Shown here: positions 4,155 to 32,933 of the stretch, piece after piece
Layout of the letters: every line of letters starts with the position of its first letter
How positions within the stretch are numbered: position 1 is the first letter of the stretch
Assembly: GCA_049999805.1 (NCBI GenBank)
Contig: JBNGIO010006309.1
Coordinates: 1-32,933 of the forward strand
Source of the DNA: Folioceros fuciformis
Lineage: Eukaryota
Length of the DNA stretch: 32,933 nt
Direction of reading: 5' to 3'
The notes under the pieces: generated by a model
Seen by the model: only the letters and a program-made list of their open reading frames with translations
Told to the model about the DNA's origin: nothing
The model's database searches: none
Made by a program: the position numbers and the translations under genes

Positions 4155-5815
4155 GTCTCCTCAAGGTCAACATAACAACCCGAGGAGGTTGAGCTGTGGA
4201 ATCACGGGCTTCAAAACCTACAACCGCAAGAGCCAGCACTCCGTAGGTCCAAGCACGACGGCGATGGCATGACGTGACGATCCCGATACAAATTCTGGTG
4301 AGCTTCCCCGGACCCTAGCGGCCATGCCTTGGCATACTGGTACAACTACCGCTAGCACCGTCAAGATGCCTGGTTCCACCTTTCAATGGCCCAGTGCGAC
4401 ATGGCCCACGCAAATCTGAGCGCACGCCTCCACAGTGTCGCCCGGCGGCTGACTCGTACAACTACCGCAGGGCCTCGTCCAGGCGTCCGTCGGCCTAGTC
4501 TAGCAGTAACGCCCACTACACCGCACTCCAAACCCCCTTCCCTTCCCTTAACTCAATCCCGTCCGAGCTCTCTACACGCCTGGACGCGCGGCCTGCAGTT
4601 TGCGTGTAGGTATCAGCTACGCACCTACTCCCCTACTCCGCCCCGCCTACACTCTGTCTACATACATACACAAATACGTGCTCCCGGCACAGGGGTATCA
4701 AAACTTAATATGCTTACATTAAATGTCATATTCGATGCAATCACAGCCTTGCATGCTAAGGATTTGAACAAACAAGAAGGCCCTGATTAAAAGAGTTCTG
4801 ACCCACATAACACTGATCTAAATGAGTGCTATGTCTTTCTTATCCCGCTCTCTCATGCAAAATTAACAGATCTTAATTCTAAGGCTATTATAATAAGATT
4901 GAACCCCCATTGCCAACAAAAGAACAATGAGTCCATGAAAGGCAAGCTCATGCCATCACCAAGCTTGATAAGCATATGAATATGAATGTAAACATCAATA
5001 CAAGGGTAAGCATGGATAGCTTTCGGACCTGGAAAAAGAAATTACAAGAAGTAAACAACCAGAAAAGTAGGTTTAGATTTTATCATTATCCTTAAGAAGC
5101 ACATTGCTCTAAGCATCATATGCCTTGGTTTGTCATACCGTTGTTTTAACATCAAAAATATGTTTCGAGGATTCTTTTTTTACTTCATACTAATTCCTTC
5201 GCCTGCATGAAATATAAGCTATGTTAGGAGTTTTGAAGAACTAATTAATATAAATTAACATCATCAAATAACAGTTGCCACATGAAGTTTTTACATTCTA
5301 ATGGTAAGTCCTACCATACATGTAGAACGTACTTGAATCATACTACTGGCATATTTGAAGGGAAAAAAAAAAAGAAGAAGAAGGATTTCATTATATGAGT
5401 GAAGATGTAGGTGATCGGTCCTAATAAACCTGCATCTTACATATATGTGTGCTAAATATATTTAATATGGCAAGTCATTTTTGATAAATCATGTAGTCAA
5501 AGAGAGTAATAATCAAAATCCATGAGTAAATAATGGCATTAAAATAACCTTGCAGGTAACAAGAGTGGCTCACTGTAGTAAATTATATTTGTACTTAAAA
5601 GTAAAACACAAGCATTTCCTCTTCTGCATGCACACGTACAGTTTCTTTTGCAAACCCAAAACTTTGCTTTATGATTTGCGGTTTGGGTAGGGCAGCCAGT
5701 CTATGCTTTGGTTTTCCGGTTTAGGATCTAACCTCAGCAATCGTTGAATGGATCTAAACAGCAATCGGATCTAAACTCAGAAAAGTTGAATGGATCTTGC
5801 AAGCTCTGCCGACAT

Positions 5816-8769
5816 TCAATAATTCATCATACTCTCATCAACAGGAGTTGTGGATTCCAACAATCGAAGAAATGCATTTTGATTAACGGTGATGCTGCCT
5901 TGTTCCCATTCCCCATGGTTGTTGGAGCCAAAGACACTTTGCACAACTTTAGGATTCGCCCTAGAACTGAGGTGATCTACCGAAATTCTGTTTCTTCTAT
6001 TGAATTGCTGGAGTCGTCTAGTCTTCTCATTGAAAATCTCTCTGCCTATGTTTTCAGTTTGCTTAGGATCTAATGCATTCATGAAACGACTAGTGTCCAA
6101 CCCCTTGGTCCCTTTTGAAAATTCCATGTTTGTCTCAGGAGGATCCCCAGACCAACTACAAGGAAGTCCTTGCAAAGGTTTAGCCTTAGGTAAGTATTGG
6201 CGTCTATCTCGATGATCCCTTTCAAGCATGAGTACCCTCTCGTCCTGCAATAGGTCAAAACTTTAGTAACCACTCGCCGATAAGGTAGATGTGTATCCCC
6301 CTAGAGTATCGACTGTAGCCCTGCATTAATGTACATAACCAAACATCAATGTGGAAAACTAATTGAAGGTTTCATGGTAGGTGTATATAGTACAATTTTA
6401 GAGCTACTTACTAAAGCTTGAGAGAAATGTCTTACTTGTTTGTTCAAGTATCTGTCCTTCCAAGAATTAGGGCACACTTTTTGTCCATGATTCCATATGT
6501 TAGGGAAGTTGTTGTTGTTTAAGCCATGGAGAGGTGGAAGCTTTGGCTTTTGCTGTGGAGAAGTGTTCATTTGAATTTGAGGAGTAGAATAAAATCTCTT
6601 GTTACTCAAATTGGGTGTTTCTTGAGGTATTTCACCAGTGGGCGGGAGTCCCAACCTAGATCTAAGCGTGTAATTCTCTTCCTTCAATTGGAATATTTGT
6701 TGTTGAAGAAGCATCAACATCTAGCAATGGAACAAAAGCATCCACTTACTTCTTACCATTCTCTACGCTAAGAAAATGGGCGGAACTGCATTTTGATACC
6801 TTGTCTCGAGCATCCATATTGATGGTAGGAGCATTGATAATTTTCTTCGCACATGTTGCATAATGCAATGTGCTTAATGTTTCATCCAAAGCCAATGTAC
6901 AAGGAGAAACACATGCGATCAAGAGAGCCAAACTATTGCCACCCAAACTTTCCATGAGTAACTTTGTGAGCATGCTTTCCCTGCAATGTAGTTATCATCA
7001 ACCCCAAGTAATATGGAGAACAAGAAGATCAACATCAAGGATCATTCAAGCTTTGTGCAAAAAGTACCTGTAAGGCACCACATCTCCTTTCTTCCCCTCA
7101 CTTAAGGCTGATATCACCTGTTTAGAAATTGGATTTGTTTAAGATACATATGTTGTAAGAAACAACTTATTGAACAAGCCTTGGACTTTGCTTTTTCATT
7201 CTTCTAAGCTTCCAAATTTTACATCAATAAAGCAACTACATTCGAGGTTCATTAGTGGACTTCAAAATATTTTTCTACCTTTCCAAGAGTGAAGAGTGAA
7301 CGATTAATGTTTCCTGTTTCTTTCAACATCTCTCCAACACTTTTACTTTTCTTAAGTCTCTCACTTCCAGCAAGGTCCACAAATAGCATTCTACCATATT
7401 TTTTAATAGGTGTTTTGTCATTTATCCATACAGAAGAATCCACATTTAATGTCATGATACAATGACTTCTGCTGCTATCTTTGTTCATTTCATGTGACCC
7501 TACCTGCAATGTTGATCAATTTGTCCTTAACAAGTTCTTATACCAAATACTCGAAATAATAAAATTTTTCAAGGTTTAAGAGGTATATGCATGTACTTTT
7601 CTATTTTTGGCTCCTTCGTTCATTACAGAAAAAACATCATCAAGAGATTCGCAATCAACAAGAAGCAAGTCCTCTACATAATATCCCTCTTTTGTACTCC
7701 ACTTTACGTCCCTTGGTGCACAATCCAATCTTAATAGATCATTCACCTGTCTTTCTTCTTCTTAATTAGACTTTGCATAACAAGCCAATGAAAACGGTAT
7801 TTATATCTTGCAATCTAGTTAGTTTTTTAAGCATTTAAAAGCCCATGATATAAGTATGATGCAATACTTGTTCATTGTAAATCTCAAAGTAAGATGCTCT
7901 TAAGGAGTATGTCTTGTTGTTTTGGGACCGATTCTTCATAGCCTTGAACAAATAAATAACTGACCTTGCAATAATACCATTTGCATCCCCATGTGCATCC
8001 ACAATCATGTCCCCTTTCTGTATAGAAGTCTGCAAGAATATATCACAATTTAAAGTGTATTTAAGTATGAATATACACTATTGAAATTCTCCCTTTGTGT
8101 GTTTGTGCAGTTTTAATGAACATACTTCTTCCCTCCCACACATGGTGTAAGTTTTGCCGGACCCTGTTTGCCCACATGCCATGATAGTAGAAGAGTAGCC
8201 TTCCAGGACAGAATCAAGAAGTCGATATACTCTACATTTTTCCATGACTTGGTCTTGTGTGACTTGGGGACCAAGACAGCCATCAAACTGGTGAGAAAAT
8301 CCATAAAAGAACATCAAGCAATGTTCAAGAAAAAATTAGTGACTGATGTGCTTATTTCTTGTTCAAATCGTACTTGAAATGAGCTTGTGGTGATATTGTA
8401 TCCAAACCCCATTTCTGTAACCTGTTTTCGATTGCTGAGGTTAGATACTTGATTCATTTCATGTTATCAAATGTTGATCACCAAAACATTAGATAATTAC
8501 TTGGAGGATCTTCTCATCGCTTGTTGTGTGCACACAACTACCCTTTGGTACTTCATCATTAGACAGTGGGCGTACTCTTACGAAAACTTGTATGCTACTT
8601 CCTTTCACTTCAATAGCGGGTTCTAATTATGAATCATTTTTGCTTTAATTAACACTACGTTGAGCTACTTAGTTGGGAAGACAAAGAAAAGAAAGATTAG
8701 AGCAATAATAATCCAACCTGAATTAACCTTCATTTCAGCTGAATCTGTATTTTCCAATATCGGACCCAT
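5816..8769 (-). CDS. N-terminal-motor kinesin, KIF12/kinesin-16-like; ~11 exons
   Basis: Phase-consistent exons 8769-8718, 8622-8501, 8421-8374, 8287-8126, 8029-7868, 7746-7597, 7503-7279, 7117-7068, 6980-6800, 6720-6436 and a probable last exon 6244-5816. Motifs: IQVFVRVRP, P-loop GQTGSGKT, SYFEIYNEQV, switch I SSRSH, switch II DLAGSE, VPYRES.LT.LL.ESLGG, then a short coiled coil. VKWSTKEGYYVEDL resembles the KIF12 loop as I recall it (VRW...GFYVE.L). The last exon and the subfamily are less certain than the kinesin call. Confidence 0.88.
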
Positions 8770-10202: not shown

Positions 10203-11428
10203 TCACGGGAGGCCGGGGGGCAGCGAGGGTTTTGCAACTTCCAGCAGACCACATTTGCTGATGACCACGGATTTGAGAGGCCGGTTCCAGAAATTGCGAG
10301 CGTTGGCAGCGCGATCGTCCCCCAAGAACTCTGCGATGTCGTTGAACTGCCGAATCCTTTCGCTAGGCTTGTAGGTAGGAACCAAGGCGATGCTGGCGAT
10401 CACGTCCAGACCTGCACAAGGCAAGCAGCGTCAACCAGCGCTGTTACCGGGATTGCAGAGCAGCAGCAGGTCGGGAGAGGGACAAGGAGGAGGGGCCAGG
10501 CGACCTTCCAGCACAGTCCCGAAGACGACATTGCCGTTGTCCAGCTGCGGCGCCGGCCCCGGCCCTGCGGACGCCACAAGCGCATGGCGGCATCAGCACA
10601 GACAGTAGTATCAACAACGCTGGGGAAGACGCGGAGGCAGAGAATCGTACCTGTGGTGATGAGGAATTCCACGTTGCGGTAGTCGGAGCTCAGCTTGAGC
10701 TCTTCCTCGTCGTCATTCTCCGCGAGGCAGAGTGAGACGGTGCCAGGGCGGACGTGGCGGAGCTTGAAGGAGCTAGCGCTGATGGTCTCGGGGTTCCGAT
10801 CCAACGCCCGGGGTCTCGCCACCTCGCCGCGGTCCCGGGAGCCTTGCCGACCCGCTTGGATGTACTGGCCGGAGAGGACGCGGTGGAAGATAGAGCCTTC
10901 GTAGGAGGAGCCCGCGGCGCCTGTCACCATGCCCTTGAAATTGGCCACCGTCTGCGGCACCTGTCGGCCGTAGAGTCCGATCACGATCCTCCCTAGCGGT
11001 TCCCCGTCGGAGCAGATCTGCGAGGCGTCCCCGAGGGTGCGATCGGCGCGGCTAGCGCTGGGGCAGATGCTCACGTCCAGGAACACCCGGTCCGTGATGG
11101 TGGTGTCCGGGGCGGGGTTGAGGGCTGGTCCGACCGGTTCCGCCTCTTGCTCCTCCTCTGCTCCGGCCCGAGAAGGGGCCGCGACCGACGCGATGCCGGC
11201 GGTCAGGATCAGTCCCACCTCCCTGCGCCTGCACCGCCAGCTGTTGCCCGCTGCCTTTTCCTCCACGGAGGCGCTGGCCCGCATCAGCAGTCTATGATTC
11301 GGAGAGACCTGCCTGCTCCGCCTGCTCGGCTGCGCCTGATGAATCCATGGCTTGGGTCTGCATAGGCAGGAGGAGGGTTGGTGCAGCCTCTGGGGAGAAG
11401 TGGTCCAGGCCGCTGTGGTAGCCGCCAT
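10203..11428 (-). CDS. CYP28: Thylakoid-lumen cyclophilin-type peptidyl-prolyl isomerase CYP28; 3 exons, 348 aa
   Basis: Exons 11428-10651, 10564-10505 and 10411-10203 total 1047 nt in frame. Ser/Arg-rich transit peptide, twin-Arg + hydrophobic + A-G-A Tat lumen signal, then TITDRVFLD, LGRIVIGLYG, VSLCLAENDD..YRNVEFLITTGPGPAPQLDNGNVVFGTVLEGLDV and TYKPSERIRQFND.AEFLGD.RA.NAR..WNRPLK, as recalled for plant CYP28. Confidence 0.93.
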
Positions 11429-12499
11429 CGCTCTTCCGGTGGGATGCTACATGGATCTTAGCCTGTCTACTCCCGCATTGCTCCTTCCTGTTCAGACGGT
11501 GGCCGTGAAATCTGCATTCACAAGCTTGATGCTTTCCAAGATCAAATCCTGCCAAATGTGTAACTCGAGCAGAGTAATTTGAGAGGCATCAGCAACCTGC
11601 CTTCCCTTCCATTCAGTGTGTATCCCACAGTGTAATCAGCTCGGGTCGGATCAGGAGCGGTGTATGGTAATGCCTGATATGAGTGATCGGTTGCCACCAA
11701 TCACGACTCGCCCAGCCTGGCCTGCCAGGTTGCCTTGTAGGGCCCAGTCTCCGGCAGATTCAACGGGGACGGGGAATGGAGAACCTACGTTTCGGATTGC
11801 AGAAGCCTCCACGCTTATACCACCACAGTCGCAAGGAAGAGGACTGACAACAAGGAAAGGGACCGAGACGACACAGCAGATACGCAAGATGTCACGTTAC
11901 AGTGATCTTTTTATGGCATTCGGCATGAAACGAACTGCCAGGCTTACACTTGCAATTCCGGCAGCTGCATATCCCAGTAGGTCAAACAATGCATATCCAG
12001 AAAAGCCCCGCACTCGCTGGCAGCCAGCAATGCTATCGCTCATTATTCAAGCAGCTCAGCCTGGAAAAAAAAAAAATTCTCTAACACAAATACATGGACC
12101 TGCAATAATGGCTGTAGGATGCGAAAACCAGGACGGCGGTACGCAACTCCCCGCCATTCCAAGTCCTCCAACGGATGACCCACACCTCGCAGTCCCAACC
12201 CTCTCATCTCGTAACTTAGATGACCACCTAACACCACGCCATTGCTACAAGGAAGAACGATGAGGATACCAACCCCAAAACTAAGTACATAACCAACTGC
12301 ATCCCTCCATCTCCAGGTATCCGAGTTAATACCATCTGCATCCTGCTCTCCCAAGCTAAAGCCTACGAGGGCCAAACATGATGCAGCCCTATTCGCAGCG
12401 ACCTTCCCATAGAAGACGGATGTTAGTTAGAAGACGAAGCAGATCGTGGACCATATTTCTCAGTACATACATACTCTTGCACCAACCATGCAAGAACTA

Positions 12500-14286
12500 T
12501 CACTCATGAGGAGGGCCTGCAACCCCTGAAGGAGCGGGCTTAGACGTCAAAAGAGGTTGCAGGGCTTTAACAACAATACTCATATTCGGCCGGAAGTCGG
12601 CCTCATACTGCACGCATAGGGCAGCTACAGCCGCCATCTGCCAACAGAAGCAGTAAGTGAGAAAAACCCTTTGCAGTTCACCGGAAGGTGTTTCAGACGC
12701 CACTTGAGAGGGTCAAAAGCAATCAATCTGATTCCAGAGCAAATATCTCGGGTGGTTACCTTGGCTAAAGCCTTGGCAGGGTACTCTGCCTTTAACTTTG
12801 GATCCACACACTGTTTCACCTTATCTTCACTCAGCCTCGGCGTTGCCTGCACAAGAAGTCGTGAGACGAAAAAAAAGTTTGGCATAGTGCATATCCGAAG
12901 ATGCTGGGAGAGTAGCTGACCCATGTGACGAGACTTTGCTGTCCGCGCGGCATAGTATGGTCCACAGGTTTCCTGCCCGTGAGAAGCTCCAATAGAACCA
13001 CCCCAAAACTGTAAACGTCACTTTTGAGGGTCAACTGCCCTGTCATGGCGTACCTGAAACATGGCGCGGATCACCTCATCAAACAAAGCTGCTTAACAGA
13101 AGACAGAAGATAATGAATATGAAATAGAAAAGTTAACTCCAGGCTCCAAAGAAGAGGAAGAATCAGCAAGCGCGCGTACTCTGGGGCATGGTAGCCAAAG
13201 GTACCCAAAACACGAGTAGAATGGAGACGGGCAGCCATATCAGGAGCTTGGTTGGACAGGTTGAAATCTGCAACCTTCGCCGTATAGTCATCAAACAGCA
13301 GGACGTTGCTGGATTTGATATCCCGGTGTATTATAGGGGGTTGCACCTTCTCATGAAGATACTCCAGCCCCCTGGCCGCTCCAACAGCGATCTTCACTCG
13401 CTGCATCCAGTCCAACACAGGTCCTGGCTGCGCTCCCTTCACACCTTTCCGACCTACATAGACGGGAATCTCCTCAAGTGTAACTTGAACCAACACAAAC
13501 ACGCAACAAAACCCACGCTCCCGTCACAGCAGGCTTCTGGACAGATATGATACCGTACCATGTAGAATGTCGTGGAGCGACCCCATAGTGGCGTACTCGT
13601 ATGCGAGAATACGCAGCGGGCCATCCAAACAATACCCCACCAGATCCACTACATTCTCGTTTCTCAACCTGGAGACCATGGCCACCTGCAGCCACACGCC
13701 AGCGAGACCAAATTCAACACCGGAAAAGCAGCGTGCAAACCCGGAAAAGAACGCCTTTAAGCAAGCCCGATAGACCGTCACCCTTCCTCCCCCGCACAAT
13801 ACCTGGTTCAGAAATTCCTGGTCCGGCTGGTTACTAGCATCCAGCTTCTTGACGGCAGCCACCCGGCCATCCGAGAGCTTGGCGTGGTAAACTCTGCCAT
13901 AGGAGCCCTCCCCAATCAAGGCCTTGGCGCCAAAATTATCAGTGGCCTCCCTAATGTCATCGATACCGATGGCGGGCGCATTGATGGACTGCGCCCGGGC
14001 CTGCGAAGCTGCCGGGGGCGTGTTGTCCCGCCTGGGAACGGAGTGGTAGCCTGCATCAGAAATCCGGTGAGAAGCAAGCCCGAAAGCACAGTCCCGCGTC
14101 GCATTCCACAGATCCGGGAGTGCCCGGACAGAACCCTAATTCCCATCCCGGCCGCGAATCCCCTTCCCAGATCCCTTCGCCCGGCCTACCTGCGTTCTGC
14201 GAGTCTGCTGAAAAAAAAAAAAAAACTGGGGGTTCCACGTTCTTCCGGTCCTGCTCCTCCACCGCGCAGCAACACCATCCCCCCAT
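12500..14286 (-). CDS. PTI1: PTI1-like receptor-like cytoplasmic kinase (RLCK-VIII); 7 exons
   Basis: Phase-consistent exons 14286-14190, 14050-13803, 13685-13559, 13453-13180, 13053-12921, 12846-12760, 12637-12500. Motifs [104 protein letters not shown] and [19 protein letters not shown] are diagnostic of the PTI1 family. Confidence 0.96.
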
Positions 14287-18955: not shown

Positions 18956-21900
18956 ATGGCTGAAGGACCAGACACCAATCGTTCTCATAGTCAGAGTGGG
19001 AGCAGGCGCAACAGTGGAGTCGACAACCAATNNNNNNNNNNTCCTCAGCCACCACATCCAAGGAGATGTGGGATCATCTGGCTATGGTGTACCACTCAAA
19101 TGACATGATGTCCAGGATGTCTGCACATACAAGGTTTCATTCTCTGAAGATGCACGAGGGTCAGCCATTGGACCAGTTCATCTCCAACTTTAGATCAGCA
19201 TGACTCCGCCTGGAACAGATAGGCAAGCCAGTTAGTGAGCAGGATGCTTGCATGAGGCTCCTGGCTGCTCTACCTGCAAGCTATGCAAGCTTCGTGACAA
19301 GTCAGAATGCAGTGCTGCATTTGGGGCAGCAGCTCGCAGCTATGACTGGAAGGAAAGAGGAAGAATTTCCTACCTTGAATGTCAACGAGCTAGTTGGTGC
19401 CTTGATGCAAGAAGAGGCTGGTCGTGCTGCTTCGAAAAGTACGAGAGGGCAGGCTCTCTTTACTGCCAAACAGAAGTGGCCAAAAAGGACTCTTAGCAAG
19501 CCCAATACAGGCAAAGGAAAAGGGACGTCACCTAGAGAAGCGTCCACCAGCAAAAAGAGGACTGGTAATTGTAATTGGTGTGGCCTCCCTAATCATTGGG
19601 AGCGGGAGTGTCGTAAGAAAAAGAATGGAGAGCCACGGAGAGCTGCAGCACCTGAAGCCAACATAGTGGCAAAGAAGGAGAAGTCAGCTTCCCCGTCAGT
19701 CCTTCTAGTTCAGTCCACTCCCAGCACTAAATATGTTTGCGAGCACAAGTCGTCCCAAAACAATACAGAGTCTAAGAAACCGCGAGTCTCACCACATGCA
19801 CTGACTGTATGCTTGTCAACTACTGTAACACATCATCAGTCATTCTGGTATGTAGACTCGGGGGCCACCGCACATATTTGCCACGACAGATTGGTTTTCT
19901 TTGGTTACACCGCACACAGTATTGGTCAAAACGTTGTATTAGGTGACGATAGTGAACTACCAATTAAAGGGGTAGGCACTGTGCACTTACGCCTGCAAAA
20001 TGGGGGCACACTCTCACTCCAAAACATACTTCACGTTCCCACAATCACGAAAAATCTGTTGTCGGTGTCTCAGCTCACACAAAACCACAGTTATGAGATT
20101 ACCTTCCGCGGGTCCATGTGTGTCATTCGAGTGTCAGGCAAGACTGTTGCCTTGGGGAAGCTAGTCCATGATCTCTTTATGTTGGATGTTACGAGTATTC
20201 CTGCACCATCTGCCCAGGTTGCTAGAGTTAGTTCACATGTAACAAATTCAGAGGTTACAAAAATCTGGCATATGTGATTCGGACATCCCAACCCTCGCAA
20301 GTTGCAGGACATGACTAAGCAGGACCTATATGCAGATGGTGTACCATCTAATTTAAGTCCCTTACCTTTTTGTGAAGCGTGTGTATATGGGAAGCTTCCA
20401 CGAGCTCCATATCCAAAAGGAGGTGGCACTAGGGCGACAGAGGTATTGCAGTTGGTCCATGCAGACCTATGTGGACCAGTGTCCTCACCCTCACTCGGTG
20501 GAGGCCTTTACTTCTTGACCTTCATCGACGATTACAGCAGATATTCATATGTTTACATCCTCAAATTGAAAAGTGAAGCATTTGAATATTTTAAGGAATA
20601 CAAAACCTTGGCAGAACAGCAGACTGGAAAGAAGTTGCGTTGCTTACGCACTGATAATGGTAAGGAGTTTGACTCGAATGCCTTCAATTCTTACTGCAAG
20701 TCCTTGGGCATTGCTCGTCAATTTACTGTCCCTTACAATTCTTCACAGAATGGGGTAGCAGAAAGACGGAATCGTTCTGCACAGAATGTTGCTCGAAGCA
20801 TGCTCAAACAGGCTGGATTAGTGTTGGCATACTGGGGTGAGGCCATCACAACAGCAAACTACCTGTACAATAGGCTGCCCGGCAAGTCTACCAATGGCAA
20901 AACCCCATATGAGCTCTGGTGTGGACGCAAGCCTTCAGTGCAGCATTTCCGTGCTTTTGGGTCTCCGGCTTATGCGTATGTTCCTAAAGAAAAACGCACC
21001 CATCAGAAGCTGTCAGACCGTGCAGAGAAGTTGCTGTTCATTGGATACACTGAAGGTGTCAAGGCATATAAGTTGATCAATCCAGTCACTTACCAGGTGC
21101 AGCATGCCCGTACTGTTATCTTTGATGAAGCATCGTTATTGAGTTCTTCTATTCCTGCATCTGTACCCCTCGATCTCTCCTTTGAGTTTGAAGACCCACC
21201 CGGCGAGCTTGCAGTCTTTGATATGTCCCCTCACAGCATATCTCTGCCTGCTGAAAGTCATGACATTTCATGTGAAGAGGAGGAAGTTCTGGAAAATCAA
21301 GATGCCGTTCCTGAAAAACAGTCACATGAAAATCATGACGTACCTGAAGTACCTGATGACATGCAAGCGGATGTGGATCCAGCATCAGCACCTGAACCAG
21401 AACCTGAACTTGTTCAAGTTCCAGCTCCAAGTTCTCGTCCTCAGCGTCCTCGAGCTGCCCCAGTGCCGTACGACCCTGCACAATGGACTACACGGCGCAG
21501 TCATACAGATTGGACTACTGGTGAAGTTACCACCAGCGTACCTACCATTCTTGATCCAGTGGGGGACCCTTCGGAGGAGCCGGTATCAGCTCTTGTAGCA
21601 GCACTCCAGAATCTCTCTCCAGTCTCATTCACGGTGGAAGAAATTCAGGCTTTGGCTGTTGCAACCCCGAATCCTGCTGATCCTGCAAGCATGAAAGAAG
21701 CATTCAGTGGACCTGATGTTGCTCACTGGAAAAAGGGAGTGCAGGAGGAATACGACTCACTTATAGAAAATGGGACATGGTCTCTTGAGCCGTTGCCTCC
21801 TGGACGCCGTGCCATATCCAACAAGTGGGTGTTCAAGACCAAGTATAACCAAGATGGGCCCATTGGACGCTATAAAGCAAGGCTCGTTGTGCGAGGATTC

Positions 21901-23274
21901 TCTCAGAAGCCTGGGGAGGACTACTTCGAGACTTTCGCCCCTGTAGTTAAGTTCCCAACCTTGCGCTTGGTGTTGGCACTTGCAGCCCACAGTAACCTTG
22001 ATGTCCACCAAATGGACGTAAAAACTGCATTTTTGCATGGTAAGTTGGAGGAAGAAATTTACATGGCACAACCTGAGGGGTACGTACAACCTGGACAGGA
22101 ACACCTGGTCTGTAAGCTGCATAAGACCATTTACGGTCTCAAACAAAGCCCGAGGGCTTGGCACACTAGGATCGACCAGTTTCTGGTCAAGTGTGGATTT
22201 ATAAGGGGGACAGCAGATTCTAACTTGTATATTCTAAGAAAGAAAGAAGTTTACCTGCTGCTGCTGGATTACGTCGATGACTTAATCATGGCTGCTTCCA
22301 CTGGACCCAATAACCTGCTGAAAGTGGTCAAGAATACGCTAAGGTCAGAATTTGACATGACTGATGTAGGCGAGTTGAAATTTTGCCTTGGCGTTGAGGT
22401 GACTCGAGACAGGAAGGCCGGGACACTTACTTTATCACAAAAGAAGTATATTGGAGATAGTCTTCGGGGCTTCCATTTCTTCGAGGCACATGGAACAAAC
22501 ACACCATTGACAGCTGGGGTTAAGTTGACCAGGGATCAAGCAGCCACAACCAATGCAGACATGCAAGAGATGAGCAAGATCCCCTACAAATAAGCAGTTG
22601 GGACGTTGATTTATCTCACCTGCCTGACGAGGCCGGACATAGCGTATGCAGTGCACCTGGTTTCGCAATTCTTGGCGAATTATGGGCGTGACCACTGGAC
22701 TCAGGTAAAACGAATTTTTAGGTACCTGAAGCAGACTATGGCATACAACATAGTGTACCGAGCCTCCAGCAAGCCAGTGCTGAGTCTTGAGGGAATCTGC
22801 GACAGTGATTGGGCCGCAGACCCCGATACCAGAAAGTTTATTGCTGCATATATTTTCACAATTGCAAGTGGACCCCTCTCGTGGTCCTGCAAGAAGAACA
22901 ATTCAATATGCCTCTCCAGCACGGAGGCAGAATACAAATCACTAACTGTTGCAGCAAAGGAAGCTATCTGGGATAGGAGGTGCCTGGAAGATGCAGGACA
23001 CCGCCAAGAAACACCTACTGTGTTGAACTGCGACAACCAGGGGGCCATAGCACTAGCCAACAACCCAATTTTCCATGCCCGTACAAAGCATATTGAGGTG
23101 TACCATCACTTCATTAGGGAAGTGGTGGCCAACGAAGAAGTAACTATAGCGTACATCAATACCTCTAAAAATCCTGCAGATATCTTGACGAAGGCATTAC
23201 CAAGCGAGGTACACTTGAGACACTGTGAAAGACTTGGGCTGTTACCTGGAGATAGCAACAAGAACAAGACTTGA
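18956..23274 (+). pseudogene. Copia gag-pol polyprotein pseudogene (3 in-frame stops; assembly gap at 19032-19041)
   Basis: gag (TSKEMWDHL, LLAALPASY), zinc knuckle CNWCGLPNHWEREC, protease WYVDSGATAH, integrase WHM*FGH..CEAC / VHADLCGP / RTDNGKEF / QNGVAERRNR, RT YKARLVVRGF / QMDVKTAFL / YVDD, RNase H DSDWAAD / STEAEY / CDNQGA / ADILTKAL. Stops at 19201, 20275 and 22591 are in the same frame. The start ATG at 18956 is inferred across the gap. Confidence 0.93.
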
Positions 23275-25437: not shown

Positions 25438-26288
25438 CTCTGGTTTAGTCAATTGTTTGCAGAACTTTTGCGTGGCTGAGTTTTTTCAATTTGTCCCGTT
25501 TATCTTCATGTAGAAGACTTCTTCCCTATCTTCCTTTTCATTTTGAAGTCTTCCTATTTCCTTTGAATGGGTTCACATCAGTCACCAACATGTAGAACCT
25601 TGTTTTCTTCTGACCTGGACAACTTTCTTTTATTTTATTGCTCCCTCAAGGAGCGCGCCAGACTCCTTTTCAACGAGTATTGAACGCCAAAAGTTGGTAT
25701 AAAAATATGGCTTCACCGAAAGGCAAAGATCTGCGGGTTGCTTTCCTTTTCTTTTATCTTGAACGACTGGGAATGACGTCTAAATACCCCCACAGAAAAG
25801 AAATACAGGCAGGTACGTTACCTGCAGCTGAACTACCTACGACAAGCAAGCAGGCCGGGTAATAGCAGAGCAGGCCAGTTCGAGAAGTGGACACAAGAAT
25901 CTATGAGACGAGTTTGAAGTAGGGAAAGGCAGCCCACAGTGCTGCAGCTTCTTGGCTTTCCCACAGGACGTTTCGGCGAAGCCGCAGGGTTTGGGCCTCC
26001 CGACCTGGTGCTGCAGGGCACTGGCCAGGTCGATCCACTCGCGGCCTTGCTGTAAGCGTGTAAGTTACGAGGCTGCTGCCTTGTTGTGGCTTTGCTATGC
26101 CTTGCTTGGTTTGGTCAACCCTGCAGATGCGGATCTGTTTCTGACTTGTTCCGTCTCAGCTTATGTGACGCCCAGATACGTCGCCATTTGGTGTGGAAAG
26201 GCTGCAATTTGATTGCTTCCGAGCTCCTCCTCACGGTTTCTCGGCGTCGTACGTGCTACAGGTTTTGCGGATCGGTAGACCCCGAGCC

Positions 26289-27617
26289 ATGGGGGGCGGG
26301 GTTCGGAGAGCCGCGCTTCCAGGCTGCTTGGGACTGGCTTTCTTCCTGTTGCTCGCGCTCCTGCCGCTCTGCAATGCTGACATCGTGCATTCCAGTATTA
26401 AGGATGATAACCGGAACATTATAGTGTTCGAGACCTTCGGGTTTGGCTCCCAGGGTCAGGTGGATGTCATTCTCAATAGTCTTGATGTGCCGACGGTGGA
26501 CAAGGCCGGCGTTGTGTCCATTCACTCCATGGGGTTTTTCCTCATCACAGGGGAGGCCCGTCTGCAGGTTCTGGTGGATCAGGAGCAAAATCCCAATGAG
26601 TGCCCGCTGGATGACCAGCACGTCAAGCTTTTGTTCCGGCTGCAGGATGTGGCTAAACTCCCTTTCACCTATAAAACCGGCGTCAACGCGGATGAGTATA
26701 CGCTTATGTTCGCAAACTGCGAGGGGAAGCAGGTATCTATGGAGGTCACCACTGAGATGTACAATTGGGTGAAAGGAGTGAAAAGCTACCTCCCTGCAGG
26801 TCAGACGCAGCTGCCGTCTCTTTATTTCTCCTTTGCCACGATTTATGTCTTGCTGTTCGTCGTCTGGGTGTACGTATGCTTGAAGCAGAAAGAAACGGCC
26901 CACTCCATCCATCTGCTCATGGGGCTCTTAGTTTTCTTAAAAGTGTTGAATTTGATGTTCGAGGCGGCTGACAAATCTTACGTGGAGAAGACTGGGACAC
27001 CCCATGGATGGGATATCGCCTTCACAATATCCAGCTTCTTCCGGGGAGTGATGCTCTTCATAGTCATTGTACTGATCGGTACAGGCTGGTCCTTCTTGAA
27101 GCCGTTTCTGCAGGACAAGGAAAAAAAGGTTCTCATGGTGGTCATTCCCTTACAAGTCATGGCAAACATAGCCAATATTGTGATTGAAGAGACAGGGCCT
27201 GCCTCAAACCGCAGCTGGTTGACGTGGAAGCAAGTGTTTCTCCTGTTCGACCTCATCTGCTGCTGCGCAGTCTTGCTCCCCATCGTCTGGTCGATAAAGC
27301 ATCTTCGAGAAGCATCTCAGACAGACGGCAAGGCTGCCAGAAATGTGGTGAAACTCACCTTGTTTCGGCATTACTACATTGTTGTGGTGAGCTACATCTA
27401 CTTCACGCGGATTGTGGTTTTTGCGCTCAAGACAGTGACGACTTACAACTATCGGTGGACAAGTGATCTTGCGGAGGAGCTGGCCACTCTTGCATTTTAC
27501 TTATTCACTGGCTATAAGTTCCGGCCTGTTCCTCACAATCCCTACTTTGTGCTTGACGAGGAGGAGGAGGAAGCCACAAGGGAGGCGGCTCTCAAAGACG
27601 ACGATTTTGAACTTTAG
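26289..27617 (+). CDS. Lung seven-transmembrane receptor family protein (GPR107/108; plant CAND6/CAND7-like), intronless CDS, 442 aa
   Basis: ATG 26289 is followed by a signal peptide (LAFFLLLALLPLCNA|D), a luminal domain (EYTLMFANC, YLPAGQTQLP) and seven hydrophobic segments. Family motifs: GTPHGWD, LIGTGWSFLKPFLQDKEKKVLMVVIPLQV.ANIA, WSIKHLREASQTDGKAARN..KLTLFRHYY, C-terminal NPYF.LDEEEE...DDDFEL. Confidence 0.93.
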   Translation: MGGGVRRAALPGCLGLAFFLLLALLPLCNADIVHSSIKDDNRNIIVFETFGFGSQGQVDVILNSLDVPTVDKAGVVSIHSMGFFLITGEARLQVLVDQEQNPNECPLDDQHVKLLFRLQDVAKLPFTYKTGVNADEYTLMFANCEGKQVSMEVTTEMYNWVKGVKSYLPAGQTQLPSLYFSFATIYVLLFVVWVYVCLKQKETAHSIHLLMGLLVFLKVLNLMFEAADKSYVEKTGTPHGWDIAFTISSFFRGVMLFIVIVLIGTGWSFLKPFLQDKEKKVLMVVIPLQVMANIANIVIEETGPASNRSWLTWKQVFLLFDLICCCAVLLPIVWSIKHLREASQTDGKAARNVVKLTLFRHYYIVVVSYIYFTRIVVFALKTVTTYNYRWTSDLAEELATLAFYLFTGYKFRPVPHNPYFVLDEEEEEATREAALKDDDFEL

Positions 27618-28503
27618 GAACCTTGCAAGTGATTTGTTTCATTTCAGCACTCTGAATTAGGTCTATGCTTGGCCACTCATGGGAAAGATTTCTCTTTTCC
27701 GTGAAGAGAGCCCAGATGAAGCAACAGCTCATGCAGAAGCCCCAGAAATATGCTGGCCTGTGTGCAGCAAGGTGGCATGCTTCCTCAAGTTCCGTCCAAC
27801 TTCTAGGTGTCACTTTTGGGGCAACTTGATGTGTAAGTATCTCAGTAGAGCGTGGGCTGCACGAGAATTCGTTTGCAGAATTCCTTTTCCAGACTCCAAC
27901 TTTGAGGGCCTCATGCTTACACCGCATCTCGACCCCGGTGCGGCTGATCTGACATAAGATTGGCAGATGCAGGTGAAGCGAATTGATTTTAGCTTTTTTT
28001 TGACCCGGTGTGTTCCAGTATTCCCTTGTGAGGGACGAACAGGTGACAAGTCCCTAGGCGGCAATGAACTGTGATTTTGATGCACGCAGCGCCTCATTGA
28101 GAACGTCAATACGTACTGCAATTTGCTCACGGTCACAGACAATTCCGACCGTCTCCAGCCAGTGAAGATTGTTTGACTCGGCAGCCGTGGCACAAAACCA
28201 GCCGGTCGGATGCGACACCTGGAGGCGGTCGACATGCATGAAGGGCTCTACCACATAACAGTGCGGGCAAGCAGACACGTGGCCGTCCACATGTCCCCTG
28301 TGTACGTTGTGCTTCCAGGAGGCCAGCCTTGGCTCCCAAGTCTGGTGGATGCAATGTGCGTCCTCAAAGCATCGTTGCGGAAGCTCTTTGGCTGAATCCC
28401 TTAGGCTGCCGCGGTGTCTGAGGCGGGGGTACAGCAAGTAAACGGGTCAACGTGTAACGATTTGTGAAGGATTGGCAGGAGCGCAGGGCTAAAAGCATCC
28501 ATC

Positions 28504-29470
28504 ATGGCAGCCAAGGAGGAAGGCTACTACCAGTCCGGCTATGGGGCGGGTACGGCGTCCCCGACGCAGCCAGCAGCAGATGTGCCCGCCGTCGTTCCTC
28601 CCGAGGAAAGGCAGACTTATTACATCAACATCCCGATCAGAGCGCTCACTTCGGATGTGGAAGAGGAGCACTTGGAGAGGCTGGCACTGTACTACACCAT
28701 CTTCGGAGCCATTTTCGTGGCCGTTGGCGTAGTCGGCATCGTGTTCCCCATCGTCTTTGCTCTGGCTGTGGAGCAGCTCATAGCGTGGCTGCTGGTTCTC
28801 ACTGGCGCCGTCTCGCTTCTTCATTTCCTGCTCGTCTGCGGCGCACCGGGGACTACGTCATTCTTGCTTCTCGGATTTCTTCATCTTGGTGTCGGCATAT
28901 GGATGCTCCTACAGCCGATCGCGGGCGGGACGATGCTCCTCTTCGTCCTTGCCGGGTGGTTTCTAGCTCATGTTTGTCGCATCTCCTTTCTCTTGGATTG
29001 TTTTTGTGAGCGGTTTGTTGATGAATCCGCAACCTGAGACCGGCAGTAATACGCGTGCGTGTGCTGGCAGGGAGTGTTGAAACTGCTCATGGCATGCCAA
29101 GTGCGGCAAATGAGCTCCTGGCCGGCAGTTTTGGTCAGCGGGCTACTGTCCATCATCCTTGCGTTCACCATTCTAGCCCTTGCGCCGACATACGGGCTGG
29201 TGCTGATAGGAATTGTGTTCGGATCCGACTTGCTTGTGTCCGGGCTATCCATGCTGTTGATCGCGTACATGGCCTACTTAGGTGAGCTTTGGTGGCTCCT
29301 GTCTGAAGTTGTCTGAAACTTGCAAAATTGTTCTCATCAGGGGTTAAGGCACTAACACGATGGTTTTCTCATCAGGCCGAAGATCTCGGGCTGCCTCTGA
29401 TGCACAACGAGAACCTCTTCTGCCAGGACCCGGCCAGGTTGCAGGCAGCCGTGCTGCTCCAGGAGCTTAG
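28504..29470 (+). CDS. HdeD / DUF308-like polytopic membrane protein; 3 exons, 257 aa
   Basis: Exons 28504-28971, 29071-29281 and 29376-29470 total 774 nt in frame with GT-AG introns. About six hydrophobic helices with the Gly-patterned hairpins of HdeD-type proteins (FGAIFVAVGVVGIVFPIVFALAVEQLIAWLLVLTGAV; LGFLHLGVGIWMLLQPIAG; GWFLAHGV; SGLLSIILA; LIGIVFGSDLLVSG). The exon 3 acceptor is less certain. Confidence 0.75.
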
Positions 29471-30212
29471 AGGGTCAGCATCGGGCTTTTACTTCATGAG
29501 ACATCGATTCTGCGCCCGACTGTCTTGTTGTGCCTCCGGCAGTTGCAGTGTCCTTCGACAATGGCACGTCACCGTAACGATCATGTATTAAATACAGAGG
29601 AAATGTTTATGTGTACTGGGACCCTGTTTTCAGTTTGTGTTGTCTGCCATTGCATTGTAGCTTGATGGTCTGTCGACTACATCGCTCCGAGCCGATCAGC
29701 TTTCTTATCACCTCTTGACACGCCTTAGGAACTTGATTAGGCTGAGGCTGTGTGCACCTCACTATATAGCACTGGGCCGTTTATTTGGTAGATGTGAGAA
29801 AGCTCCAGTTTGCTCCAGGTCCCACCGATTCGTGTCCAACAATGGGTTGTAAAATATACACATGAGGGGATATCCGGTGATGCCTTCAGCCAACACTTAT
29901 CCCTGCCAACATTTGGTTCCTTAGGCTCTGGGGTGCTCTTAAGGATTGATACTCTTAAGGATTGATATTTAAGAGTCGCTTTCCATGTGTACCCCAACCA
30001 AATCAATGTGGACAAAATAAGTTATAGGGCACTTTCCATGTTCCATAACACTTGCACGTGGCCAAAAACCAGAAAGTGCTAATGCTAGATTTTAAGTGCC
30101 AGATTTTAAGGGCGCTGACCGGGACTAGTATTGTGGTTTTATATTTTACCTATTTTACATTTTATATTACCAGCATAAATTATAGTGTAAATTATGGGAC
30201 CCTTCATAAGGG

Positions 30213-30305
30213 GTCTAAACCCTTGCTTACTCTCATGCTGCCAGTCTAAACCCTTGCTTACTCTCATGCTGCCAGTCTAAACCCTTGCTTACTCTCATGC
30301 TGCCA
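30213..30305. repeat. Three perfect tandem copies of a 31-bp unit at the LINE 5' junction
   Basis: GTCTAAACCCTTGCTTACTCTCATGCTGCCA at 30213, 30244 and 30275. Confidence 0.97.
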
Positions 30306-32861
30306 AGTGTGTTGTCCTCCGTTCTGCTTTATTCCTCTCTTCTTCAGACACCCCTCCTCTTCCCCGTCCGCTGCTTCCCTTTTCCCATGGCCCACCCGTG
30401 CTTTGCACGAGGTGCAGGAGGCTCTCTTTGGTGCGAAGGCCTAGAAAGCGGCAGGCCCAGACACTATTGCTGCAAGTTTTCTTCAGAGGGGTTGGGACCT
30501 CCTCAAACAATTTTACTTATATATCTTCCAGGCCTGCTCCACTTTGGGTTATCATCCTTTGACGTGACGTCACTCGCTCACCATCATTTTCCGCAAACTG
30601 AATCAGGCTAATTATTCGTTACCCCGCTCATATCGCCATATTGCTCTTCTTAATTGCTTAGGCAAGGCCCTGGAGGGTTTTATGGCTTCACGTCTCTCCT
30701 TCTTTGTTGAGAACAATTATGGCCTCCTTCCCTCCGGTCATTTGGGGGGTCGGCCGGGTTGGAGTACAAGCGATGCAGCAGCTCTCCTTGTTCAGGATAT
30801 CCGTCAGGCTTGGGTCAACGACATGTTCTCTCCCTGCTCCTCATGGATATCAAAGGAGCATATGACTCAGTTAACCATCAGATTCTCTTATCTATCTTGT
30901 GCAGGAAGGGTCTTCCAACTCCGCTGATCCATTGGGTCTTCCACTTTCTGTCTCAATGGGCGACGACACTTTGCCTGGATGGTCAATATAACACTCTTGC
31001 TCCCATCAGTTCTGGGTTACCCCAGGGTTCGCCAATCTCGCCTATTCTTTTCCTATTCTTCACTTCTGATCTCATCACTCAACTTCAAATCATGGGTGGT
31101 GGCACTGGCTGGATTGATGACACGGGAGCATATGTCACTGCTCCTTCATGCAAAAAGTCTACAAAAACCCTTCAGGCTATGCTTCGTGTGGCATCGGAGT
31201 GGGCCTCCACGCACCTCGTGGAGTTTGATTCTAACAAGTTTGAACTTATTCATTTTTCCCTGAAGCGTAAGGAATCAACAAAGGAATATACTCTTTTGCT
31301 ACCTGATGGTTCCCTTATCACTCCCTCCAAGTGTATTAGGTTTTTGGGCTTCTATTTGGATTCCAAGTTAACTTGGAACACGCATGTTCATCAGGTTTCG
31401 GCTTCCGCAATGCGTACTTTGTCAGCTATAATCTCTCTTAGGAATTCAGTTTGGGGCCTCAATGCCAAGCTTCTTCGACAATTATACATCAGTGTTGTCC
31501 TGCCCAAGCTCGATTACGGCTGCAATGTCTGGTTCAATGGAGGTCGTACACACATTCAACACCTCCAACGGGTCCAACGTCTAGCCTGTAGGGCCATTAC
31601 TGGTGCGTTTCGAACTACCTCCACTGATGCCCTAGAATTTGAAGCTTTTCTTTTGCCCATGGAGTTGCGCCTCCAACGCCATTCTCTCCGTTCTCTCCTC
31701 CGCAACGACTCCTGCCCTCCCTCTCACCCCATCCATCAAGTCTTTCTTCCTATGACTAACTACAAAAAACGCTACCACAATGCTATTCGCAGTCGCCTCA
31801 CACTCCTTTCCCCTAGAACTCTGTACTCCGCTTTAGGACTGCCCACCTCCACCGCCATTGAGACTATTTTTCCTCGACTCGTGCCTCCCTGGGCCTCTCC
31901 TCTTTCTTTACCCACAACCATCGTAATTTTACAATCTCCCACTTTTGCTATTGCCTCACATTCCCTACATCTTTTGACTCCTGATGCCCTTGCCATTTAC
32001 ACGGATGGTTCTCTTCTGGATGGTCATGCCGGGGGCGCAGCTGTTTTCTACTTCAATGGGGATATTGTCCATCAATTATCTTTTGGTTTAGAAACATACT
32101 ACGGGGTTTATGAGGCAGAACTCCTCTTTGTGGTCAAAGCAATTTCATGCCTGGGCACCCTCTTTGCTTTCATCCCCATGATTTCATCAATTACAATTTT
32201 CCTTGATAATCAACCAGCTATCATGTCTTTAACGGACACTTCGGCTCGCCCAGCCCAAGCTATATCTCTCCAAGCTAGGACATCTCTCCATGCCTTCTCG
32301 GTTGCTCATCCGGAGGTTTCCCTTAATCTCCACTGGATTCCGGGCCATCACAATATAGTTGGTAATGAGCATGCAGATGTAACCGCCAAGGCTGCCACTC
32401 TTCTTCCCATTTCCCGCGAAGACCGGATCCTATCAGTGTCCAGAGCTAGCTAGCAAATTCATGCTGCAAGTCTACAGGAGTGGTGTTTACGGTGGGTTTC
32501 CTCAACTAAGGCTTCTGCGCTTAAGAGGGTGGTGCTTGGTGGCCCTTCGGCCTCGGTGCTACAATGCCTTGGTCTCCATGACCGTAAGCTCTCATCATTT
32601 CTCACCCAGCTTTGGACTGGGCATATGGCTATTGAGGCTTACTTTAAGAGATTCAACATTGCAGAGGATCCTTTTTGTCGGAAATGCAGGTCTTTAGAAG
32701 AAACTTGTCACCACATCCTTGACCAGTGTGTGGCCACTCGCAACACTTGGATCCATATGTTTCAAGGCTCTTGCTACGATATCCGCCAACTTCTTAGGGT
32801 TCCCAAACTCAGGGAAAAACTTCTCTCTTACTTCAAGGCGATTGGCGATTACTTAACTTAG
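30285..32861 (+). mobile_element. 5'-truncated non-LTR retrotransposon (LINE) ORF2 pseudogene: RT + RNase H + CCHC, Tad1/I-group-like
   Basis: KAAGPDTI, LGYHPLT*RH, NYSLPRSYRHIALLNCLGKALEG, HLGGRPGWST, DIKGAYDSV, GLPQGSPISPILF, WIDD, RFLGFYLDSKLTW, RAITGAFRTTST.ALE. RNase H: YTDGS...YEAEL...DNQ...WIPGH..GNEHAD..AK. C-terminal QLWTGH..C.KC....ET..H....C. Stops at 30442, 30565 and 32451 and a frameshift near 30815-30826. No ORF1 or endonuclease; the 3' tail is not seen in the window. Confidence 0.92.
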
Positions 32862-32933
32862 GCTTATTGACATAGCTATCTAGATTTGCTATTTTGTTTG
32901 CTCTAATCCTCTTTCTTTTGCGCTTTCCCAAAG

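Follow-up and report, generated by a model that had tools for sequence, protein, structure and literature searches.

The LINEs of land plants are described as nearly all L1, with some RTE, and the tails of plant RTE elements as (TTG)n or (TTGATG)n (PMC3747384). Tad1 is a clade whose host range is given as fungi only (PMC4438587, Table 3), and Inkcap is described as another fungal LINE clade (PMC4427930), from which the element studied here is not told apart. A survey from 2025 that covered 1,348 fungal genomes finds Tad1 enriched in fungus-to-fungus transfers and reports the Tad1 transfers as unique to fungi (bioRxiv 10.1101/2025.06.16.659975). Fungal-type transposons of two other kinds have been reported in seed-free plants, namely Tcn1-like Gypsy elements with LTRs (PMC2864245) and the Mariner elements PpTc1 and PpTc2 (PMC7466625), and the trees of P. 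patens LINE-1 and LINE-2 follow the species tree (PMC7466625). Literature searches, made without pairing ferns or Marchantia with Tad1 by name and without Repbase or Dfam, returned no hornwort, moss or lycophyte for which a Tad1-type LINE is described; Repbase, Dfam or subscription papers may already hold such an element. In a study of spinach, 46 LINEs are tabulated as 'Tad1' and 65 as 'I', and L1 does not appear in the table (PMC6337768), and these 'Tad1' entries look like an automated label, yet are in print.

The locus considered here lies in a contig of the hornwort Folioceros fuciformis (JBNGIO010006309.1), and the window is the whole stretch of 32,933 nucleotides that was analysed. Its 3' part is a LINE copy whose first base corresponds to roughly base 2400 of the full-length element and which is without ORF1 and the APE domain (Table 1). 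The 5' limit of the copy is the onset of homology with other copies, and in the other direction it extends beyond the ORF2 stop (32859-32861) to the end of the window, inside the 3' UTR. The copy is dead, its frame being broken near 30361 and 30811 and interrupted by three in-frame stops (30442, 30565 and 32451). The triple repeat at its 5' junction arose either by slippage during integration or by tandem duplication afterwards. The truncation point of another copy, L011, lies a few bases at most from that of the window copy.

Table 1. Features of the window and of two full-length family copies (L022, L029)
Feature	Position	Strand	Remarks
Plant CAND7/GPR107-like gene	26289..27617	+	PF06814 and PF21904; 63-64% to Marchantia, Riccia and Selaginella proteins
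Spliced DUF308 membrane-protein gene	28086..29877	+	PF03729 E 5e-4 (below cut-off); ends ~400 bases 5' of the LINE
Triple perfect 31-bp tandem repeat at 5' junction	30213..30305	+	Unit = 9 flank bases + the element's first 22 bases
5'-truncated dead copy of ~5.1 kb Tad-like LINE	30284..32933	+	93-96% identity with best other copies, from 30284 onward
RT, N-terminal part	30445..30810	+	One in-frame stop (30565); ends at frame break near 30811
RT core, C-terminal part	30837..31355	+	WIDD active site 31110-31121; PF00078 (RVT_1) E 1.2e-14
RNase H, fungal/animal (His) type	31986..32396	+	PF00075 E 1.1e-9; D-E-D-H-D residues
C-terminal CCHC zinc knuckle	32676..32729	+	C-X2-C-X8-H-X4-C; downstream of in-frame stop 32451
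3' UTR start	32862..32933	+	In other copies the end of the 3' UTR has a small stem-loop plus a (TAAA)n tail
5' UTR tandem units at full-length 5' ends	L022:6290-6420 and L029:2350-2800

An earlier note on this DNA had listed a series of motifs in the order RT, RNase H, CCHC, and every one of them is located by six-frame translation, in agreement with the Pfam matches to RVT_1 and PF00075. Ahead of the RNase H these are LGYHP (30544), YSLPRSYRHIALLNCLGKALE (30613), GGRPGWST (30745), WIDD (31110) and AITGAFRTTST (31593), and from the RNase H onward YTDGS (31998), WIPGH (32334), GNEHAD (32361) and QLWTGH (32607). WIPGH and GNEHAD are separated by four residues, not by the two that had been written. 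The description of the WIDD active site as unusual was mistaken, since 8 of 264 relatives share it; the other motifs among these relatives include FVDD (84), YIDD (47), FIDD (28), YVDD (25), WVDD (18) and YADD (14). The D-E-D-H-D residues of the RNase H are carried by YTDGS, YEAEL, FLDNQ, WIPGH and GNEHAD, and a zf-RVT match on the window copy (E 7.9e-6) is slightly below the family cut-off.

The neighbours of the LINE are plant genes. In run X3, which is putative RNA, introns of 94-100 bases are removed from these genes, among them GT-AG introns of 99 and 94 bases in the DUF308 gene; the host genes are covered by this run and the element is uncovered, which says nothing either way about expression of the element. 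The same run has one donor with two alternative GT-AG joints upstream of the CAND7 start (26059-26262). Just 5' of the LINE, at 29970-30215, dispersed repeats are represented by short pieces of about 90 bases, which have 23 other matches (75-88% identity), and the search for an empty insertion site recovered none, the 5' flank matching other contigs only in short repeat pieces. Farther away, the window contains a fairly intact Ty1/copia element with gag, protease, integrase and RT domains and a few stops (19204-23274, plus strand), a cyclophilin-type isomerase (10400-11446, minus strand), a multi-exon protein kinase that is presumably PTI1-like (12625-14135, minus strand) and an AT-rich stretch with short open frames (5700-6720, minus strand), which is possibly a decayed retroelement and in which the one frame scanned has no Pfam match. 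The host assembly also holds an intron-bearing gene of the LCIB family, which among land plants is reported from hornworts only (PMC8075897); this one marker, together with the land-plant genes, points to a hornwort as host. A search of the assembly for rbcL gave no match.

When a 1.5 kb piece of the element is used as query against the 87 Mb host assembly, it gives at least 46 DNA matches, mostly of 87-96% identity, across 40 contigs, several of which exceed 400 kb; the number is a lower bound, with 40 of 42 candidates scored. The copy count and the search for full-length members that the earlier note had suggested thus have an answer, for one copy with ORF1 and APE (L022) is full-length at 5105 bases. 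The full-length element was reconstructed from the upstream stretches of ten long copies. Its layout is a series of TTAGGG-bearing 5' repeats, a zinc-knuckle ORF1, an ORF2 in which APE is followed by RT, RNase H and CCHC, and finally a (TAAA)n tail. The 5' end, CTCTCCTCTCC, is common to three copies and is followed by tandem units of 31 and 38-39 bases, the number of which varies between insertions, with 4 TTAGGG motifs in L022 and 14 in L029. Such TTAGGG-bearing units are like a monomer promoter or telomere-like boxes.

ORF1 has three C-terminal zinc knuckles, as read from translations, and matched no Pfam family. Its stop overlaps the start of ORF2, as ATGA in four of the five copies with the junction shown and as GTGA in the other. 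The APE domain of ORF2 matches PF14529 with E 1.2e-17; searches of the PDB gave no match for APE and only non-significant RNase H1/HI matches (E 0.39 and worse) for RNase H. None of the family copies examined has both ORFs intact. Target duplications of 7-16 bp are found in 10 of the 14 distinct copies with both ends readable, where those of 7-8 bases are less convincing than the longer ones, and the duplication at L016:1420-1500 lies, we assume, inside copia gag-like sequence. With an ORF1, an ORF2 that has APE and RT, and no LTRs, the family has the make-up of an autonomous APE-type LINE, and with varied 5' truncation, a simple-repeat 3' tail and target-site duplications it has the insertion signs of one. 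The 3' UTR folds slightly better than its shuffles (z -1.87), and GC3 is 0.47 in the element against 0.66 in the one host gene used as comparator. One copy (L014, 1-1500) adjoins a PPR reading frame.

The I group of LINEs comprises I, Tad1, R1, LOA, Nimb and allies, and RTE elements are not known to have an RNase H or a zinc-knuckle ORF1. What is found in the present family is the I-group arrangement, with a His-type RNase H after the RT (PF00075, D-E-D-H-D, WIPGH) and then CCHC. At one RNase H position the fungal/animal type has His, and the archaeal type, that of plant L1, has Arg (PMC5348765); the element has His at this position, and in the Pfam search of the window copy PF00075 is matched and PF13456 is absent, so that the RNase H is unlike that of plant L1, as had been claimed. 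Compared with human L1 ORF2p, the family RT reaches 43 bits and a host L1 136, and the window RT is 22% identical to the host L1s; yet an AU test does not reject the grouping of the window copy with host L1 (p 0.35), in our reading because a very long L1 branch can attach anywhere. Of the two placements that the earlier note had named as fatal to its proposal, L1 is contradicted by RT scores and trees, and RTE by architecture and tail only, the trees being without an RTE reference. Its main proposal, a fungal-style I-group LINE with RNase H in a plant genome, stands, with the RT in a fungal clade (SH-aLRT 97) and plant genes as neighbours. The sequences support classification as a fungal-type I-group (Tad-like) LINE, not L1, where Tad-like means resemblance, in trees without a named Tad1 reference (such references being, we take it, Neurospora Tad1, CgT1 and MGL). 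A land plant as host falls outside the host range tabulated for Tad1, but this range describes the clade and does not define membership; the plant host is the anomaly.

Among the 120 long proteins listed as matches, all 34 that carry an organism name are fungal, and among the 120 shorter proteins listed the names are fungal for 13, animal for 6, each of these being weaker than E 1e-18, and plant for none. The closest of 1.84 billion protein representatives is 40% identical, the best identity overall is about 40-42%, and the best metagenome locus has 37% identity over full length; no close donor was found among these representatives or loci. Of 29 top relatives listed without an organism name, four could be given one (Meripilus, Hirsutella, Ephemera and Artemia). 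In BLASTP from the window RT the best protein, from a metagenome, scores 308 bits, Meripilus 280, Ephemera 160 and the host L1s 46 and 37.

The trees, which are quick or FastTree trees without bootstrap, were made with 268 rows (FastTree) and then 73, 51 and 40 rows, as fragments, near-duplicates and long branches were dropped, the last including Artemia, P0052, the host L1s and long rows without a name. The rows were chosen from matches to the query, which biases them toward the clade of the window copy. In the 40-row RT tree the window copy belongs to a clade of 33 rows with SH-aLRT 97, and the 51-row tree agrees. All 13 organism-named members of this clade are Ascomycota and Basidiomycota; 19 of the 32 other rows are without organism name, including the BLAST-closest relative, and some of these could be non-fungal. 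The RT groups with sequences of Aspergillus, Fusarium, Penicillium, Rhodotorula and Trametes, and the best trees nest the window copy inside the fungal clade, with SH-aLRT 80-92 at the inner node in quick trees and a terminal branch of 0.82-0.89. When the window copy is instead placed outside the fungal clade, as its sister, the AU test does not reject the tree (p 0.17), and when it is placed with the animal group the tree is marginally rejected (p 0.044). The 33-row clade and this last test put the RT together with fungal LINEs that carry RNase H and apart from the animal I-group elements. The knuckle region of ORF1 also matches fungal ORF1s (Hirsutella, E 2e-11, and proteins of Penicillium and Fusarium), and its nearest Atlas clusters are mostly basidiomycete, though the records are few.

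The copies differ by 2.1-4.7% from the family majority, the reading frame of which is stop-free over 539 codons. Private changes are near neutral (319/1209 versus 134/408, ratio 0.80), while changes common to at least four copies are depleted of replacements (21/1209 versus 21/408, ratio 0.34, small counts). The common changes thus appear to have been under purifying selection, which suggests successive active source elements within the host genome. All nine PF14529 and all five PF00075 profile matches (both lower bounds) are copies of this one family, in a genome that also has many L1-like and LTR RTs. A single young family fits one invasion; the amplification is recent, and the transfer may be far older or from an unsampled fungus.

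The reading that we regard as probable is that a Tad-like LINE of fungal ancestry came into this plant lineage from a fungus through horizontal transfer, after which it multiplied by target-primed reverse transcription. It is favoured because both ORFs have fungal affinity, the family is single and young, and no named relative is a plant; the ordering of the RT scores, from Meripilus over Ephemera to the host L1s, supports it as well. Against it stand the low identity of the best relative, the unrejected sister position and the unrejected grouping with host L1, and the donor and the date are its least secure parts. A bolder version, which we hold tentatively and at slightly less than even odds, is that this would be the first validated cross-kingdom passage of a fungal Tad-type LINE to a land plant, probably from a hornwort's fungal partner that the databases lack, with several active rounds of transposition, and that the TTAGGG 5' repeats could be a two-kingdom promoter that enabled the jump.

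From LINE biology, transcription would start within the repeat-rich 5' UTR, the ORF1 protein would package the element RNA, and ORF2 would be made by stop-restart at the overlapping ATGA. APE would nick the target, the RT would prime on the tail, and the element's own RNase H would strip the RNA. Early termination would leave truncated copies, the window copy included, and CG and CHG methylation would afterwards silence and erode them.

Since the collections hold no close donor, two other origins retain a share of the probability. The larger share, corresponding to an unlikely but serious alternative, goes to a relict: an I-group lineage passed on vertically that has survived in hornworts, perhaps also in further seed-free plants or in algae, and has disappeared from seed plants, with the same mechanism and no transfer. 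The long terminal branch, the low best identity and the unrejected sister position are all in accordance with this. Hornworts are, furthermore, thinly covered in the protein collection, where the best match of the host CAND7 is only 68% identical, and gene sets often omit TE proteins. However, there is no plant among the 57 organism-named relatives among the matches listed, although the collection includes proteins of Marchantia, Riccia, Physcomitrium, Ceratodon, Selaginella, Diphasiastrum, Adiantum and Ceratopteris; one young family is present in place of a diverse set; the best trees nest the window copy within the fungal clade; and Tad1 is tabulated as fungi-only (PMC4438587, Table 3). An annotation table for Anthoceros angustus (PMC7027989, supplement) has 30 PF00078 and no PF14529 or PF00075 among the entries listed, which is too weak to count as absence.

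Less probable still is a horizontal transfer from a non-fungal or unsampled eukaryote, such as an animal, an oomycete or a soil protist, with a Tad-like or other I-group element. The BLAST-nearest proteins are metagenome sequences without organism name, ORF2 has arthropod clusters at Atlas ranks 2 and 3 (0.95 and 0.94) directly after an ascomycete cluster (0.96), and the animal grouping is rejected only marginally. Against such a donor, the named animal sequences reach 160 and 108 bits, compared to 280 for Meripilus, and form their own clade, and Hirsutella is one named member of the clade with P0002 and P0272.

C-to-T changes, counted in the 20 best-matching copies against the per-column majority, make up 275 of 3265 observations at CG (8.4%), 275 of 3240 at CHG (8.5%) and 301 of 14603 at CHH (2.1%), i.e., they are roughly fourfold more frequent at CG and CHG than at CHH. 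The CHG rate exceeds the CHH rate in 20 of 20 copies, and 147 of 207 CHG sites are hit compared to 242 of 919 CHH sites (Fisher p 9e-33). These 20 copies have no RIP signature, with CAA, CAC and CAT at 2.1-2.3% and CpA outside CAG at 2.2%. From the CG/CHG-biased decay and the lack of a RIP signal it follows that the copies have aged in a plant nucleus and are not a contaminant, and the family is truly integrated in a seed-free plant genome. In runs X1 and X2, from one sample that is possibly the source of the assembly, summed depth is 7-12 over the host genes next to the element and rises to 100-790 over the element itself. Contamination, or a chimeric assembly with DNA of an associated fungus, is very improbable and for the family largely refuted: although no contig among those listed from runs X1 and X2 bridges the window copy's own 5' junction, where a single-copy contig stops at 30154, the family is spread over many contigs, some of them long, with target duplications in most testable copies, dispersed copies have a PPR gene and a plant U-box ARM gene as neighbours, run contigs reproduce the 5' junctions of two further copies, three pieces of the element occur in the 5 million letters of run X7 (same species label, different study), and the decay matches the CG and CHG methylation with nearly absent CHH described for Anthoceros agrestis transposons (PMC10952607). 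For the family, the decay pattern and the target duplications also answer the concern in the earlier note about contaminant fungal DNA.

A recently amplified family of fungal-type I-group LINEs in a hornwort is thus real and, to judge from its sequence, would work like Tad1. Either fungus-to-plant transfer of transposons extends to non-LTR elements, or a third LINE lineage survives in seed-free plants, and in both cases the family is a clean read-out of plant CG/CHG methylation acting on a foreign-type element. The surprise is lessened by the fungal-type LTR and Mariner elements known in mosses and lycophytes (Wang et al. 2021, New Phytol., reportedly describe a fungal-type Tcn1 Gypsy) and by the conventional structure of the element.

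Plant L1 elements, including the RNase H-bearing Ta11 group, are like the present element two-ORF APE-type LINEs of land plants with target duplications, and some of them carry RNase H, but with Arg (archaeal) where the element has His (fungal/animal) (PMC5348765). Unlike them, the element has an APE that matches PF14529 and a tail that is not poly(A). Animal I-group LINEs (the Ephemera and Trichonephila matches, presumably of the I and Nimb clades) share its domain order and RNase H type, but their RTs are only 26-29% identical and fall in a separate clade, joint grouping being rejected at p 0.044. The Drosophila I element has TAA repeats at its end (PMC3747384), which may be compared with the (TAAA)n tail. 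Closest in build are fungal Tad/Tad1 LINEs such as the Tad-CgT family element RtPc5 from Paracoccidioides, which also have two ORFs in different frames, an ORF2 with APE, RT and RNase H, a length of 5-6 kb and mostly truncated copies (PMC4427930). The element differs from these by its plant host, by identities with known proteins of no more than about 40%, by a (TAAA)n tail in place of poly(A), by a 5' UTR of variable TTAGGG-bearing tandem units, and by decay through CG/CHG deamination and not through RIP. Finally, the Tcn1-like Gypsy (PMC2864245) and PpTc1/PpTc2 Mariner (PMC7466625) elements are, like the present one, bryophyte or lycophyte transposons with fungi as nearest relatives, for which transfer has been proposed, but they are LTR and DNA transposons, whereas the hornwort element is non-LTR.
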